In this document: piece by piece, positions 1,291 through 4,320 of the stretch
Position numbering within the stretch: position 1 is the stretch's first letter
Layout of the letters: each line of letters opens with the position of its first letter
Origin: a virus
Taxonomy: Duplodnaviria; Heunggongvirae; Uroviricota; Caudoviricetes
IMG/VR virus record: IMGVR_UViG_2534681998_000007
Strand: one strand, 5' to 3'
DNA length: 5,859 nucleotides
Made by a program: the position numbers and the translations under genes
The notes under the pieces: model-generated
Told to the model about the DNA's origin: nothing
The model's database searches: none
Seen by the model: the letters and a program-made list of their open reading frames with translations, nothing else

Positions 1291-1320
1291 AATATAGCCC
1301 CGGATAACAGATTGAGTCAA
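1291..1320 (-). promoter_or_regulatory. Sigma70 promoter overlapping the Q-like stop codon (pR'-like late promoter)
   Basis: Minus strand: TTGACT (plus 1315-1320), 18-nt spacer, TATATT (plus 1291-1296). The -35 hexamer contains the TGA stop of the upstream Q-like ORF. Predicted start near plus 1283, giving a roughly 80-nt RNA ending at the 1203-1228 terminator. Confidence 0.55.
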
Positions 1321-1871
1321 CAGACAGTTTTTAAATACCCGGAAGAGAATGCATCACGCATCGGCAGATAGAGCATATATTCAGCAAGATTTAGCCATAC
1401 ATCTACCCGACTGCAGCACGTCCGAAAACACCACTCAGGGTGTGCATCATTTAGCAATTCAGCCATTTTGCGCTTACTCATCCCCCGCCCTTCATATCTT
1501 TGCCGGAGGATACAAATCAATCCTGGGTGTTCTGCCAGCACTTCACTAATCACCCGATCAATGCATAACGCCTCTGCATCAGTACAATGCACCAGCCAGC
1601 TTTTTTGCTTGCCGTTGATCATATCCCGCAAAAAAGCCTCAAGTTCAGGTTTGTCCAGACCTGCTTTTTTCATCCTCCGGAGCGCCTCATTAATTGCCGT
1701 TTTTGTTAGCTTTTTAGAGGTCAGCAACTGGTTAAACATATTTCCCGTCTTACCGCCGCCAATATACGACCAGCGCCCCCACATACGTAGTTTTCCCTGA
1801 ATCCAGACACTTTCCAGCGTGGTGAGACGAAGGTGTTCTCCGCTTTTTCCTGTATTCGTTGGGTAAATCAT
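1317..1871 (-). CDS. Putative late-gene antiterminator (Q-like), 184 aa
   Basis: Start ATG at 1871 (MIYPTNTGK...) is preceded by AAGGAGG at 7-nt spacing; the upstream part of ORF 1317..1991 overlaps the DUF1364 gene in another frame and is not credible. ATGA overlap with the DUF1364 stop. The assignment is mainly positional (last gene before the promoter-plus-terminator module); I do not recognise the Q family from the sequence. Confidence 0.55.
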   Translation of the reverse strand: MIYPTNTGKSGEHLRLTTLESVWIQGKLRMWGRWSYIGGGKTGNMFNQLLTSKKLTKTAINEALRRMKKAGLDKPELEAFLRDMINGKQKSWLVHCTDAEALCIDRVISEVLAEHPGLICILRQRYEGRGMSKRKMAELLNDAHPEWCFRTCCSRVDVWLNLAEYMLYLPMRDAFSSGYLKTVC

Positions 1872-2158
1872 AAATATCCCTCCTTTCTCCAGATTTCTTG
1901 TGTGCGAAAAACACCTTCTGCATGCATCAGGCGTAATTCTTCTTTGGTGTAATCGCCGGTTTTTACCCGCCCGTCGATTAAATCGTGGCACGAGCTACAG
2001 GCAATCGCTGCCTGCATATCGTGTGGCTTTATCGCTGTTCCGCACGTTCCCGCCAGTCGGTAATGCGCCAGCACAGACGTTTCGGGATTGTGATTGCAGT
2101 AGCCAGGGATTCTGACCTGGCACATCTGGCCCCGCGCTGCTTTACGTAAATCCACCAT
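1868..2158 (-). CDS. ybcO: DUF1364-family protein (YbcO-like putative nuclease), 96 aa
   Basis: Complete ORF. MVDLRKAARGQMCQVRIPGYCNHNPETSVLAHYRL...ACSSCH closely resembles my recollection of DLP12 YbcO, with four conserved Cys. Start ATG overlaps the upstream TAA (TAATG) and the stop overlaps the Q-like start (ATGA). Symbol is by homology only. Confidence 0.7.
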   Translation of the reverse strand: MVDLRKAARGQMCQVRIPGYCNHNPETSVLAHYRLAGTCGTAIKPHDMQAAIACSSCHDLIDGRVKTGDYTKEELRLMHAEGVFRTQEIWRKEGYL

Positions 2159-2757
2159 TACGCAAACTCCAGCAGCTGCGCGGCCACATTTTCGACTTCC
2201 TCCAAAGAGGAGAATTTACGGAACAGGATCCAGTTCCACAGGACGTTAAGTACGGCTTTATAAACCTGTTGAAATTCAGTTTCGTCCATATTCGCAAAAG
2301 CAATGGACTTCGCCCGACGCCCGCGGCTACCGTCTGGATAAAAATGCTCGGTGTAGAAGCCGGCCTGAATGGTCACCCACTCGCGGAAAGCGTCAAATGA
2401 TTTGAGCAATGCCATATCCTGGGTTCTGCGTGTCGCAACGGTATTCAGATATTGTTCCGCGGCATCACTCAGAGCTGGCGTATGTTCCCTGCCTACTGAT
2501 TCACACAGGTAATCAACGAAGCCAAACACCATTTCTCGTTCGCGAGGTGTGATCGCCCCACCGATCGGAGTCCAGTAATCGAATCCGAGTTGCAGAAGTT
2601 TAAAAAAACGCTTATGGAATGCGTAGTTACGAACGCGCTTAAAATCAGCGTGTATCCACTCGCCTATTTTGATTTGATACAGAAAATCGCAACTCTCCGG
2701 CGTCGCCGGGAGAAGTAAACCAGAAGAAGTTTGTTTGACCAGTTGTATATGCGCCAT
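2158..2757 (-). CDS. DUF1367-like phage protein, 199 aa
   Basis: Complete ORF with GGAGAA SD 5 nt upstream of the ATG at 2757. Immediately precedes and is coupled to the DUF1364 gene, a pairing common in lambdoid nin regions. Family assignment is from memory. Confidence 0.6.
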   Translation of the reverse strand: MAHIQLVKQTSSGLLLPATPESCDFLYQIKIGEWIHADFKRVRNYAFHKRFFKLLQLGFDYWTPIGGAITPREREMVFGFVDYLCESVGREHTPALSDAAEQYLNTVATRRTQDMALLKSFDAFREWVTIQAGFYTEHFYPDGSRGRRAKSIAFANMDETEFQQVYKAVLNVLWNWILFRKFSSLEEVENVAAQLLEFA

Positions 2758-2828
2758 CGTAGTTCTCCGCTGGCGCAGTAGAATGGGTGTTCAGCCCGTT
2801 ATGTAGTATACCAGAATTAATGCCAATA

Positions 2829-3080
2829 CTAACAGGATGCTCTGACTCGCAATTCATCCAGCAGTTTATCATTTCCCATAATGTCACTTACCCTCATCGG
2901 TAAAAAAATTGCCTTTCGACCATTACGATACATCATTGATTTTGGGGTTTCAGGGAAGTAATCCATTTCGACTATAACTGACAGGTCATCACGACGTATG
3001 ACTGCGTATTTGCAACTAAATAGTTTCTTTATTTTTTCCACGATGCCTCCGAGTTTATAAGTACAAACGGTTATATCCAC
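2829..3080 (-). CDS. Hypothetical 83-aa protein in the AT-rich island (doubtful)
   Basis: ORF with a GTG start at 3080 and no recognisable SD; the internal ATG at 2966 also lacks an SD. Lies in a markedly AT-rich segment. The translation is not low-complexity, so it may be real, but support is weak. Confidence 0.25.
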   Translation of the reverse strand: MDITVCTYKLGGIVEKIKKLFSCKYAVIRRDDLSVIVEMDYFPETPKSMMYRNGRKAIFLPMRVSDIMGNDKLLDELRVRASC

Positions 3081-3226
3081 ATAGAGACAAAAATATTAAT
3101 CTGAGAAATATTTATTTCACGCTGTATATTTGATTATTTAATGTGCAGGTACAATGACTTTTATTTTTTGTTGTGTATATAATCAAATATATGGTTATTT
3201 TTCACCCTGCGCATTCAGCACGCAAC

Positions 3227-3249
3227 AAAAAACCCGCCGAAGCGGGTTT
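3227..3249 (-). terminator. Intrinsic terminator of the hok mRNA
   Basis: Minus-strand RNA: AAACCCGC-UUCG-GCGGGUUU followed by UUUGUUG (plus stem 3233-3237/3242-3246, extendable to 3230-3249). UUCG tetraloop. Located about 70-90 nt after the hok stop. Confidence 0.7.
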
Positions 3250-3251
3250 AG

Positions 3252-3267
3252 TGCGGGTGCGTTGAGG
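3252..3267 (-). promoter_or_regulatory. hok mRNA 3' complementary box (fbi-like), partner of 3630-3645
   Basis: Plus 3252-3267 tgcgggtgcgttgagg is the reverse complement of plus 3630-3645 cctcaagcacccgcag except for one inserted g, so the mRNA 3' end can pair with its 5' end across about 380 nt. Confidence 0.5.
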
Positions 3268-3316
3268 ATGCCTGACACATCAGAGGTGGCGGGAGATTAC
3301 TCCCCCGCCTGGTCTC

Positions 3317-3472
3317 TTACTTCTCAGATTCGTAGTCTACGAAGACAGCGACCTCCGTCTGACCGGTTCGGATTCGCACCTCGCAGAGGTCTTTCCTCGT
3401 TACCAGTGCCGTCACTATGACGGTTAAACAGATGACGATCAGGGCGATTAACATCGCCTTTTGCTGCTTCAT
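3317..3472 (-). CDS. hok: Hok/Gef-family type I toxin (51 aa), HokD/HokC-like
   Basis: MKQQKAMLIALIVICLTVIVTALVTRKDLCEVRIRTGQTEVAVFVDYESEK: single transmembrane helix plus the conserved LVTRKxLCEVRIRTG...EVAVF periplasmic motif of Hok/Gef proteins. ATG at 3472 with GGAG 8 nt upstream. Symbol given at family level only. Confidence 0.85.
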   Translation of the reverse strand: MKQQKAMLIALIVICLTVIVTALVTRKDLCEVRIRTGQTEVAVFVDYESEK

Positions 3473-3529
3473 AGCCTGCTTCTCCTTGCCTTTCGGCACG
3501 TAAGAGGCTAACCTACATGTGTTCAGCAT
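3317..3529 (-). CDS. mok: mok-like leader ORF (70 aa), in-frame N-terminal extension ending at the hok stop
   Basis: ATG at 3529 with GAGG about 9 nt upstream; shares stop and frame with hok, as in chromosomal mokC/hokC as I recall their annotation. Whether it is translated is inferred from locus architecture. Confidence 0.55.
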   Translation of the reverse strand: MLNTCRLASYVPKGKEKQAMKQQKAMLIALIVICLTVIVTALVTRKDLCEVRIRTGQTEVAVFVDYESEK

Positions 3530-3590
3530 GGATTGAGCCTCAGATTAATGTTAAGCGTCTTGCAGGACGCGTAATGTTAACTGGGGCTTT
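3521..3590 (+). ncRNA. sok: Predicted Sok-like antisense RNA (approximate coordinates)
   Basis: By analogy with hok/sok, the antisense RNA is encoded opposite the mok translation-initiation region. Only a weak plus-strand promoter is visible (TTGCCT 3486-3491, 17-nt spacer, TAACCT 3509-3514) and I could not find a clean terminator, so the ends are uncertain. Confidence 0.3.
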
Positions 3591-3629
3591 TCTCTATCTG
3601 CCGTTGGTGTTCATGCCCGAGGCAGATAG

Positions 3630-3645
3630 CCTCAAGCACCCGCAG
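3630..3645 (-). promoter_or_regulatory. hok mRNA 5' complementary box (tac/ucb-like), partner of 3252-3267
   Basis: Sits immediately downstream of the predicted hok promoter. The mRNA 5' sequence ...GGGUGCUUGAGGCUAUCUGCCUC... resembles the 5' end of plasmid R1 hok mRNA as I recall it. Followed by a 9-bp stem (3594-3602/3621-3629). Confidence 0.5.
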
Positions 3646-3647
3646 CA

Positions 3648-3675
3648 ATTCTACTTAACTATCCTTTTCCCGCAA
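3648..3675 (-). promoter_or_regulatory. Predicted hok mRNA promoter
   Basis: Minus strand: TTGCGG (plus 3670-3675), 16-nt spacer, TAGAAT (plus 3648-3653). Predicted start near plus 3640, giving a roughly 415-nt transcript to the 3227-3249 terminator, close to the known size of hok mRNAs. Confidence 0.45.
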
Positions 3676-3682
3676 ACCGTTT

Positions 3683-3766
3683 TTATCCCCAGCGGCAAAT
3701 CGAATACACCACCAGCGCCACCGCCATCGCAATTCCTACCGTTGTGAATGCTTCAGGCCAGGTCAT
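3683..3766 (-). CDS. Small 27-aa hydrophobic ORF (MTWPEAFTTVGIAMAVALVVYSICRWG), absent from the ORF track
   Basis: Translated by hand. The ATG (plus 3764-3766) overlaps the TGA stop of the DUF551-like gene (ATGA) and is preceded by AGGAGGTG at 5-nt spacing. Predicted single transmembrane helix; TAA stop at 3683-3685. Confidence 0.35.
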   Translation of the reverse strand: MTWPEAFTTVGIAMAVALVVYSICRWG

Positions 3767-4320
3767 TGATTCACCTCCTGCGGCGGTTCTGGTAGCGACA
3801 TCCAGTGGGTTGCTTGCCTAAGATCATTACCCGGACTAACTGCTATACCTCCGCGCCGGAACGTGCCTCCGAGATAGCGTGCGGAATATATTAATGGCCC
3901 AGCCTCGCTATCGATATTCATCGAAATAAGCACGTTCTGGCTCTTTTCAGGCATTCGCTCAGTACAGCTTATCCAGCCATCCAGAGTTATCGGAGATCTG
4001 GTTGACGTTTCCGAGATTTCCCGAAAATTGTTGGTTGACGAATTCTTATTTTCCCGAAAGTTTCCGGCCTGAAGCATGGCGACGCGGCAGGCGTTCCAGC
4101 CATCAGCATATGTTTTAGTTACACCGTCGAGATGGCAGGTAAGCAAATCCATTTCATCAGGCACTACCATTGCTATCGGCTCTGCTTCCAGTGATGCCAG
4201 CGCGATACGAAACACATTAGCCAGCAGGCTGTCTGAAGACTTGTTATCGTGCGCCGAGTCGCTCAGGAAGCCTGTGATGTATGATTTAATCTCCGCGCGT
4301 TCTCTGGTAATAGTGCTCAT
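3763..4320 (-). CDS. DUF551-like phage protein, 185 aa
   Basis: Complete ORF with AAGGAAA SD about 8 nt upstream of the ATG at 4320. The C-terminal region GWISCTERMPE...VLIS...GGIAVS...THWMSLPEPP matches the DUF551 pattern as I recall it. Confidence 0.65.
   Translation of the reverse strand: MSTITRERAEIKSYITGFLSDSAHDNKSSDSLLANVFRIALASLEAEPIAMVVPDEMDLLTCHLDGVTKTYADGWNACRVAMLQAGNFRENKNSSTNNFREISETSTRSPITLDGWISCTERMPEKSQNVLISMNIDSEAGPLIYSARYLGGTFRRGGIAVSPGNDLRQATHWMSLPEPPQEVNQ

Follow-up and report, generated by a model that had tools for sequence, protein, structure and literature searches.

The hok and mok reading frames and their genomic context

The window, by which we mean the whole 5,859-nt stretch of tailed-phage DNA that was analysed, carries on its minus strand an open reading frame of the Hok/Gef toxin family (3317..3472). 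The 51-aa protein translated from 3472 to 3317, MKQQKAMLIALIVICLTVIVTALVTRKDLCEVRIRTGQTEVAVFVDYESEK, matches Pfam PF01848 (HOK_GEF) with E=1.1e-22 across the whole profile, positions 1-42 of 42, and has the same sequence as HokW of 933W/Sp5. The mok gene (3317..3529, minus strand) begins 57 nt upstream of the hok start, is read in the hok frame as far as the hok stop codon and encodes 70 aa. Its product matches PHROG 251, 'MokW-like host killing', with E=2.7e-32, and its sequence shows zero nucleotide differences from mokW of 933W. The initial annotation of this DNA had proposed both the Hok/Gef toxin gene and an in-frame mok-like leader, and both frames are indeed open (mok from 3529 to 3317). 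Each is preceded by a Shine-Dalgarno (SD) sequence on the minus strand. That of mok, GAGG at 3538..3541, lies 8 nt before the AUG, is spanned by the complement of the Sok antisense RNA and was found to be invariant in 14 of 14 diverse loci aligned, while that of hok, AGGAG at 3482..3486, is read directly from the sequence and is conserved in the alignment of relatives. Two plus-strand ORFs that overlap the locus (3154-3420 and 3517-3747) are antisense to the conserved gene and RNA and were treated as spurious.

All large ORFs of the window are located on the hok strand, and the same-strand neighbours are, in order, DUF4014, DUF551, hok, an 83-aa ORF, DUF1367, YbcO and a DUF1133 Q-like gene. 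This is the segment of a lambdoid prophage that separates the replication genes from Q, in agreement with the nin-region placement suggested earlier. The hok terminator is followed by a low-GC block (23-39% GC, ~2830-3230), with the 83-aa ORF, which belongs to PHROG 1813, and then DUF1367. No transposase-family match was obtained among the window ORFs scanned against Pfam or PHROGs, and no IS element was seen adjoining the locus.

The cassette is widespread. A megablast search with positions 3200-3700 returned a match in 4,716 of 5,426 complete Escherichia coli genomes. More than 8,500 indexed assembly blocks contain the exact Mok protein, usually in the same gene order as here (replication genes, DUF551, hok, Q), and more than 10,800 contain the exact upstream DUF551 protein. 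Two positions are common in E. coli prophages. In the first, the cassette is part of the early-right operon, in the order cro, replication genes, DUF1627, DUF4014, DUF551, hok, BOF/YgiW-like gene, DUF968, RusA and Q; in the second, represented by 933W/Sp5, it adjoins attR and is accompanied by AntA, DksA/TraR, DUF4752, Ea22/DUF551 and, after hok, a BOF-like gene. The window shows the first arrangement, which is the commoner of the two. In most copies, as in 933W, homology to the window ends at 3250 and a BOF/YgiW-like gene follows, but the version with a terminator was also found elsewhere, at locus L019 and in E. coli matches covering 100% of the query. The alternation between a terminator and a YgiW-like junction is mosaic recombination at a module boundary and not a new kind of element.

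Promoter, transcript and terminator

Upstream of mok, the minus strand contains a putative hok/mok promoter formed by a -35 box, TTGCGG (3670..3675), and, after a 16-nt spacer, a -10 box, TAGAAT (3648..3653). The -35 box is identical in 933W hokW and matches TTGACA at 3 of 6 positions. The hexamers and spacer of the promoter proposed in the initial annotation are, therefore, present as described, but the two boxes together match the consensus at only 8 of 12 positions. The consensus promoter scan missed both the hok and the Sok promoter, as each falls below its threshold of 4/6 per hexamer, and the assignment of promoters relied instead on the alignment with hokC and R1 together with a published -10 mutant. 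In this alignment, the -10 box of the window falls on TATAAT of K-12 hokC and on TATGAT of R1-type hok, and its spacing from the conserved start GG(G/C)(U/C)GCUUGAGG is the same in all three.

The Rfam model of the hok leader, RF01794, matches 3641-3467 (minus strand) over the full model (1-157), scoring 113.5 bits (gathering score, 59; E=4.4e-26). The match begins at 3641, coinciding with the transcription start expected 7 nt after the -10 box. A full-length hok/mok mRNA starting at G3641 and ending at the U tract of the terminator would be ~415 nt long (3227..3641, minus strand). The Rho-independent terminator (3227..3249, minus strand) comprises an 8-bp stem, a UUCG loop and a U tract, and its sequence is AAACCCGC-TTCG-GCGGGTTT followed by a T run. 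This UUCG-loop terminator, already recognized in the initial annotation and read here from 3249 to 3227, is the only terminator-like site in the interval 3050-3800. The hok 3' UTR (3227-3314) also gave weak matches to the Rfam families rsmX and isrK, which were rejected: their E values of ~0.04 are far below the gathering score, and they are look-alikes consisting of a hairpin plus a terminator.

The Sok antisense RNA

The plus strand harbours a Sok promoter at 3486..3514, with the -35 box TTGCCT (3486-3491), a 17-nt spacer and the -10 box TAACCT (3509-3514); the sequence is identical in 933W. Primer YO-421 of Takada et al., designed for a promoter-less sokW mutant, changes exactly this TAACCT box, and the sokW mutant with the altered -10 box lost its antitoxin activity (PMC8621323). 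The predicted Sok RNA, of ~71 nt, extends over 3521..3591 (plus strand), where the sokW feature of AF125520 maps, and its complement includes the leader hairpin as well as the SD and start codon of mok. Its predicted fold (-31.5 kcal/mol, z=-5.2) leaves ~9 nt free as a 5' tail, followed by a long hairpin and then a U tract. It differs from sokW at a single base, position 3564, located in the hairpin loop.

Fold-back pairing of the hok mRNA

In hok mRNAs, the 5' end carries the tac (translational activator) box, which pairs with the fbi (fold-back inhibitory) element near the 3' end. In the window, tac is GGGUGCUUGAGG at 3630..3641 and fbi is CCUCAA-C-GCACCC at 3255..3267, both on the minus strand; the position of fbi is conserved and its sequence covaries in related loci. 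A complementarity of 15/16 nt between the two ends had been noted previously. It is real in the DNA, where it consists of 9 bp, a 1-nt bulge and 6 bp, but the pairing in the RNA amounts to only 12 bp because the likely start, G3641, leaves 3 of the 15 complementary bases (3642-3644) outside the transcript. Moreover, the partner of 3644, window position 3252, differs in 933W. The RNA pairing is thus made of 6 bp, a bulge and 6 bp, joining GGGUGC-UUGAGG (3641-3630) to CCUCAA-C-GCACCC (3267-3255). A repeat finder with a minimum arm of 10 nt did not list this pairing, given that the one-base bulge leaves arms of 9 and 6 nt.

Folding of the ~415-nt minus-strand transcript yielded what the initial annotation had anticipated, with the tac/fbi closure included in the minimum free energy (MFE) structure and the mok SD paired. 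The full-length transcript has an MFE of -175.3 kcal/mol, with z=-7.3 relative to dinucleotide shuffles, and each of the 12 tac/fbi pairs has a probability of 0.97-1.00 in the partition function of the 415-nt transcript. In the full-length ensemble, the mean unpaired probability is 0.20 for the mok SD and 0.08 for the mok AUG. In the consensus structure of RF01794, the mok SD (GAGGC) is paired with ucb (upstream complementary box, or anti-SD), which in the window is GCCUCUUAC at 3500..3508 (minus strand). The ucb is invariant across the aligned loci and is also complementary to tac; the duplex between tac and the ucb region is predicted at -17.2 kcal/mol, and the same complementarity is found in relatives.

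The tac/fbi pairing is more than a chance complementarity, and the case for it rests on conserved position and covariation. A shuffle control, which is weak for E. coli-type loci owing to their GC-rich 3' UTR, gave 1/100 with the window and as many as 26/100 with some relatives. For the comparison, we used 47 loci encoding Hok relatives, obtained from a scan of one genome per species. In ~30 of these 47, the 5' box pairs with a segment located 45-56 nt after the hok stop codon, and this position is conserved in Escherichia, Kluyvera, Citrobacter, Pantoea and Photorhabdus. Among 13 distinct sequence combinations, compensatory changes on both sides occur at 3 of the 12 pairs, the remaining pairs being invariant or G-U. 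Pair 4 is U-A in Escherichia and C-G in Photorhabdus and Pantoea, pair 12 alternates between G-C and A-U, and pair 11 is A-U in Citrobacter. Using RNAalifold on 14 full transcripts, the outer 6 tac/fbi pairs were recovered (pair 4 being UA in 7, CG in 6 and UG in 1), along with the 3'-UTR hairpin and the leader hairpins.

Degenerate copies were also found. Locus L006 is a decayed prophage copy with a mutated tac box and mok out of frame, whereas L014, at the hokC position of another E. coli chromosome (~13.6-19.8 kb, as in K-12), is devoid of the conserved fbi pairing. The identification of L006 as the relBE-hokD locus was considered and rejected, since its ORFs show a different decayed prophage copy and not relF; it is still usable as a decayed control. 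Given that tac and fbi are present in the window, whereas decayed-looking copies lose the pairing, the window copy is intact by the hok family's own criteria.

A further element, the 3'-UTR hairpin GGCGGGGGAG-UAAU-CUCCCGCC (3288..3309, minus strand), appears in all folds and is conserved in the alignment of relatives, where it shows compensatory changes. By analogy with R1 hok, for which a protective role of the 3' hairpin has been described (PMC9841398), it would be expected to protect the truncated, active mRNA at its 3' end. In the prediction for an RNA shortened by 43 nt at the 3' end, the 5' end leaves fbi to form a hairpin of its own, and the mok AUG becomes more accessible, with an unpaired probability of 0.41. 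The predicted mok SD, on the other hand, stays paired with GCCCC at 55-59, and neither the MFE structure nor the ensemble shows it open. We treat the absence of SD opening from the predicted truncated RNA as a probable limit of the prediction, rather than as evidence against the mechanism. As thermodynamic folding did not reproduce the opening of the mok SD, the activation step is taken from the R1 literature.

Comparison with R1 and K-12 hok loci

The hok/mok/sok (parB) locus of R1/IncF plasmids has the same architecture as the window, with a weak promoter, tac, an in-frame mok of 70 codons and a hok of ~50 codons, and likewise with an antisense Sok promoter inside mok, ucb, a 3' hairpin, fbi and a terminator. 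R1 hok/sok and the window match the same Rfam model, RF01794, and the R1 tac box is GGCGCUUGAGG, compared with GGGUGCUUGAGG in the window. K-12 hokC (gef)/mokC/sokC and hokD (relF) belong to the same family and have the same layout. When R1-type hok, K-12 hokC and the window are aligned, the -10 boxes coincide, mok is in frame, and the 5' end GG(G/C)(U/C)GCUUGAGGCU is conserved, as are ucb, the hok SD and the region of the stop codon. The layout is, therefore, common to the three, and the hallmarks of inactivated copies (lost tac/fbi, frame-shifted mok) are absent from the window.

Several differences were also observed. In the Sok-target region of the leader, the window and its closest relatives possess an additional hairpin of ~18-20 nt with respect to hokC and R1. 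The Hok of the window shares 92% identity with HokD-type proteins, and RefSeq names close relatives hokD. K-12 hokC is abutted by IS186, whereas the window copy has every element. The K-12 hok copies are regarded as inactive, as reportedly concluded by Pedersen and Gerdes in 1999. The R1 replicon is a plasmid, on which the role of the locus is post-segregational killing, and R1 Hok is only 44% identical to HokW (Takada et al., PMC8621323).

Comparison with hokW of 933W/Sp5

The hokW/mokW/sokW locus of 933W (= Sp5) encodes Hok (51 aa) and Mok (70 aa) proteins identical to those of the window. Over 3250-3700, the two sequences are 98.7% identical, and mokW, hokW and sokW have been annotated in 933W since 1999 (AF125520). 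The 424 nt running from the hok -35 box to fbi contain 4 differences (99.1% identity), none of them in the coding sequence of mok or hok: 3661 falls within the spacer of the hok/mok promoter, 3564 within the loop of the Sok hairpin and 3252 just past fbi, while the difference at 3309 adds one pair to the 3' hairpin. Both loci have in common the upstream flank, which is the C-terminal part of the DUF551 gene. Homology stops at 3250, beyond which 933W continues with a YgiW/BOF-like gene and the window with its own Rho-independent terminator. Furthermore, the 933W cassette adjoins attR, while that of the window belongs to the early-right operon, with the replication genes on one side and Q on the other. 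These two differences, in terminator and in operon position, are minor, although because of them the induction response of Sp5 may not transfer unchanged to the window copy.

The Sp5 locus has been studied experimentally (Takada et al. 2021, PMC8621323). It functions as a type I toxin-antitoxin, and after induction it makes the host lyse sooner and raises phage release two-fold. The checks suggested in the initial annotation have thus for the most part been carried out on an allele with identical proteins and 99% identical RNA. HokW is toxic and stops growth; sokW expressed from its own promoter neutralizes HokW, sokW in trans partly rescues the -10 mutant, and RNase III and Hfq add to the antitoxin effect of sokW (PMC8621323). 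Both hokW and sokW RNAs were seen on northern blots before induction, and after mitomycin C, sokW vanishes and HokW appears in the inner membrane, in a RecA-dependent manner and ~1 h before endolysin (PMC8621323). Deletion of the Sp5 locus delayed growth arrest by ~40 min and halved phage yield, and left growth unaffected without induction (PMC8621323).

Identity of the cassette and proposed mechanism

The complete hok/mok/sok type I locus claimed in the initial annotation is borne out by the analysis, as the toxin, the in-frame mok, the leader RNA, tac/fbi, the terminator and a Sok gene were all found. Judging from its sequence, the minus-strand region 3227-3675 is an intact hokW/mokW/sokW toxin–antisense-RNA cassette, an ordinary member of its family. 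The view of it as an apparently intact rather than decayed copy also holds, with tac, fbi, mok and the Sok promoter all intact and ~99% identity to the tested hokW-sokW. Taken as a whole, the best explanation is a hokW/mokW/sokW type I toxin-antitoxin with the standard family mechanism, to which we assign a probability of about 0.9. The cassette is already known, having been annotated in 933W in 1999, studied functionally in Sp5 in 2021 and given its own phage protein family, PHROG 251.

For the window copy, we infer the transcript ends, the 3' processing, the toxicity and the Sok activity from homology, the mechanism being taken from R1 hok/sok and hokW, as summarized in PMC9841398. The weak promoter at 3675-3648 would produce a stable hok/mok mRNA of ~415 nt, running from 3641 to ~3227 on the minus strand. 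The 12-bp tac/fbi pairing would hold this mRNA closed, with the mok ribosome-binding site paired, and in the closed form mok and hok would be untranslated and Sok unbound. Slow trimming at the 3' end would strip the terminator and fbi, after which the 5' end would refold and the mok site would open. In the lysogen, the short-lived Sok RNA of ~71 nt would then pair with the mok start region and block mok translation. Since hok translation is coupled to that of mok, this block would also stop the synthesis of Hok, and the duplex would be marked for RNase III. If Sok were lost, the 51-aa Hok would insert into the inner membrane and damage it.

Possible roles in the prophage

The most likely role of the cassette in the prophage, by analogy with what was measured for hokW in Sp5, would be that of a lysis helper. 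Upon induction, Sok would disappear and Hok would be made ~1 h before endolysin, advancing lysis and phage release.

It is conceivable, albeit rather unlikely, that an active cassette mainly serves the retention of the prophage, with the stable hok mRNA causing post-segregational killing of prophage-free cells. Such killing is the founding function of the hok family (PMC9841398), the annotation of 933W reads 'prophage maintenance', and a 2026 preprint reports an enrichment of hok genes of ~four-fold in prophages (bioRxiv 10.1101/2025.08.07.668861). However, deletion of the Sp5 locus had no effect on the growth of uninduced cells, and the phenotype that was measured concerns lysis and phage yield (PMC8621323). 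Prophage retention does not exclude the lysis-helper role.

The probability is lower still that the cassette acts for the lysogen chiefly as an abortive-infection or exclusion module, in which a lytic phage would stop transcription, Sok would decay and Hok would kill the cell ahead of maturation of the invader. Defence genes are frequent in prophages, and R1 hok/sok is cited in PMC8621323 as having cut T4 plating by 42% and plaque size by ~85%, but this effect of R1 was small and required a high copy number, having been obtained with a high-copy plasmid. In addition, according to 10.1101/2025.08.07.668861, hok genes are not enriched beside defence systems. Prophage retention and abortive infection may be regarded as possible additional roles.

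That the locus is a decayed, non-functional hok relic like K-12 hokA-E, intact in looks only, is highly improbable: many chromosomal hok copies are inactive, L006 (mutated tac, out-of-frame mok) and L014 (without fbi pairing) are decayed examples and RefSeq labels close relatives 'hokD', but all the elements are present in the window and pair correctly, the locus has 99% identity and identical proteins with respect to a hokW-sokW locus proven toxic and regulated, and the window ORFs scanned against Pfam and PHROGs gave no transposase-family match.

Possible transcriptional read-through upon induction

In both common positions of the cassette, hok lies downstream of an antiterminated early operon and is co-oriented with it, namely the early-right operon in the window and the early-left operon in 933W/Sp5. 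No terminator was found between the DUF551 stop codon (3763) and the start of hok, so antiterminated early transcription must pass through hok in sense orientation, head-on to the Sok promoter. Besides, of the intrinsic terminators on the hok strand between the Q-like gene and the replication-side genes, that of hok is the clearest. In 933W, hokW lies on the minus strand beside attR, and int, xis and N, which run to attL, are on that strand too; with this gene orientation, the early-left transcript would reach hokW only after the genome circularizes. A search of the whole window for a LexA box that might account for the RecA dependence found none, even with 1 mismatch allowed.

We tentatively propose, as an idea with perhaps a modest chance of being correct, that induction may drive sense read-through over the locus, colliding with the convergent Sok promoter and giving 5'-extended hok RNAs, and that the hok terminator may act as an N-dependent checkpoint before Q. 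If true, read-through would explain why sokW is lost in a RecA-dependent manner and why HokW appears when it does, and would provide a concrete, testable induction switch for a question left open by Takada et al.

Significance of the window copy

As a discovery, the locus carries little weight, the cassette being annotated, functionally characterized and present in most E. coli genomes. The value of the window copy is that of a clean, canonical example of the hok cassette. Because it keeps the family's own terminator directly after fbi, unlike the tested Sp5 copy, it is a better template than Sp5 for studying the behaviour of a hok mRNA embedded in a phage early operon.

Boundaries of the hok cassette

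Similarity to phage 933W extends upstream of hok as far as the alignment's upstream limit (3760), with scattered differences, whereas on the other side of the cassette it ends sharply at 3250. A DUF551-domain gene directly precedes hok in both common genomic contexts, namely the early-right operon and the 933W/Sp5 position next to attR, and the C-terminal end of this gene travels together with the hok cassette. As a negative control against the intact copy in the window, we used a decayed hokD-type copy from Escherichia coli strain ECMA0423 (locus L006, CP178302.1 1945310-1951462; copy at ~2740-3160 of the locus). In this copy, the tac box, the 5'-end pairing element of the hok mRNA, is mutated (GACUGCAUGUGG), mok and hok lie in different frames, and pairing between tac and the 3'-end element fbi did not exceed that of shuffled sequences.

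The Q-like gene and a putative anti-repressor module

For the DUF1133 Q-like gene, the longest predicted ORF (1317-1991, minus strand) encodes 224 aa from a GTG start and shares ~120 nt with the end of the YbcO gene. Its Pfam match begins at residue 41, and the E. coli relative is annotated at 184 aa; the true start is probably an internal ATG near 1871. Directly after this gene, the minus strand at 1097-1320 carries a strong promoter-like site (TTGACT-18-TATATT, 1320-1291), a terminator (1228-1212) and three Rfam matches above the gathering threshold: a C4 antisense RNA a1/b1 target (1297-1244, 47.8 bits), isrK RNA (1284-1207, 69.4 bits) and C4 antisense RNA (1181-1097, 67 bits). An ORF6N anti-repressor gene (1043-462) follows immediately downstream, and together with it this region looks like an antisense-controlled anti-repressor module of the P1 immI/Gifsy-1 IsrK type, located where lambda has PR'/6S RNA.

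The low-GC block downstream of hok

In 933W and most E. coli prophages, hok is followed by a YgiW/BOF-like gene, whereas the window has in its place a block (~2830-3230) of 23-39% GC, compared with 50-58% in hok. This block includes an 83-aa ORF (3080-2829, minus strand), which belongs to PHROG 1813, of unknown function, and has no match in Pfam, as well as an AT-rich spacer, in which lies an inverted repeat with 16-nt arms (3125-3140/3176-3191, 94% complementary). Also located in the spacer are two plus-strand promoter-like sites (3101-3183; CTGAGA-18-TATATT and ATGACT-18-TATAAT, 10/12 matches), a count not above chance for the region, which are directed at the hok 3' end. If active, they would produce an RNA antisense to the hok terminator (3227-3249) and fbi (3255-3267).
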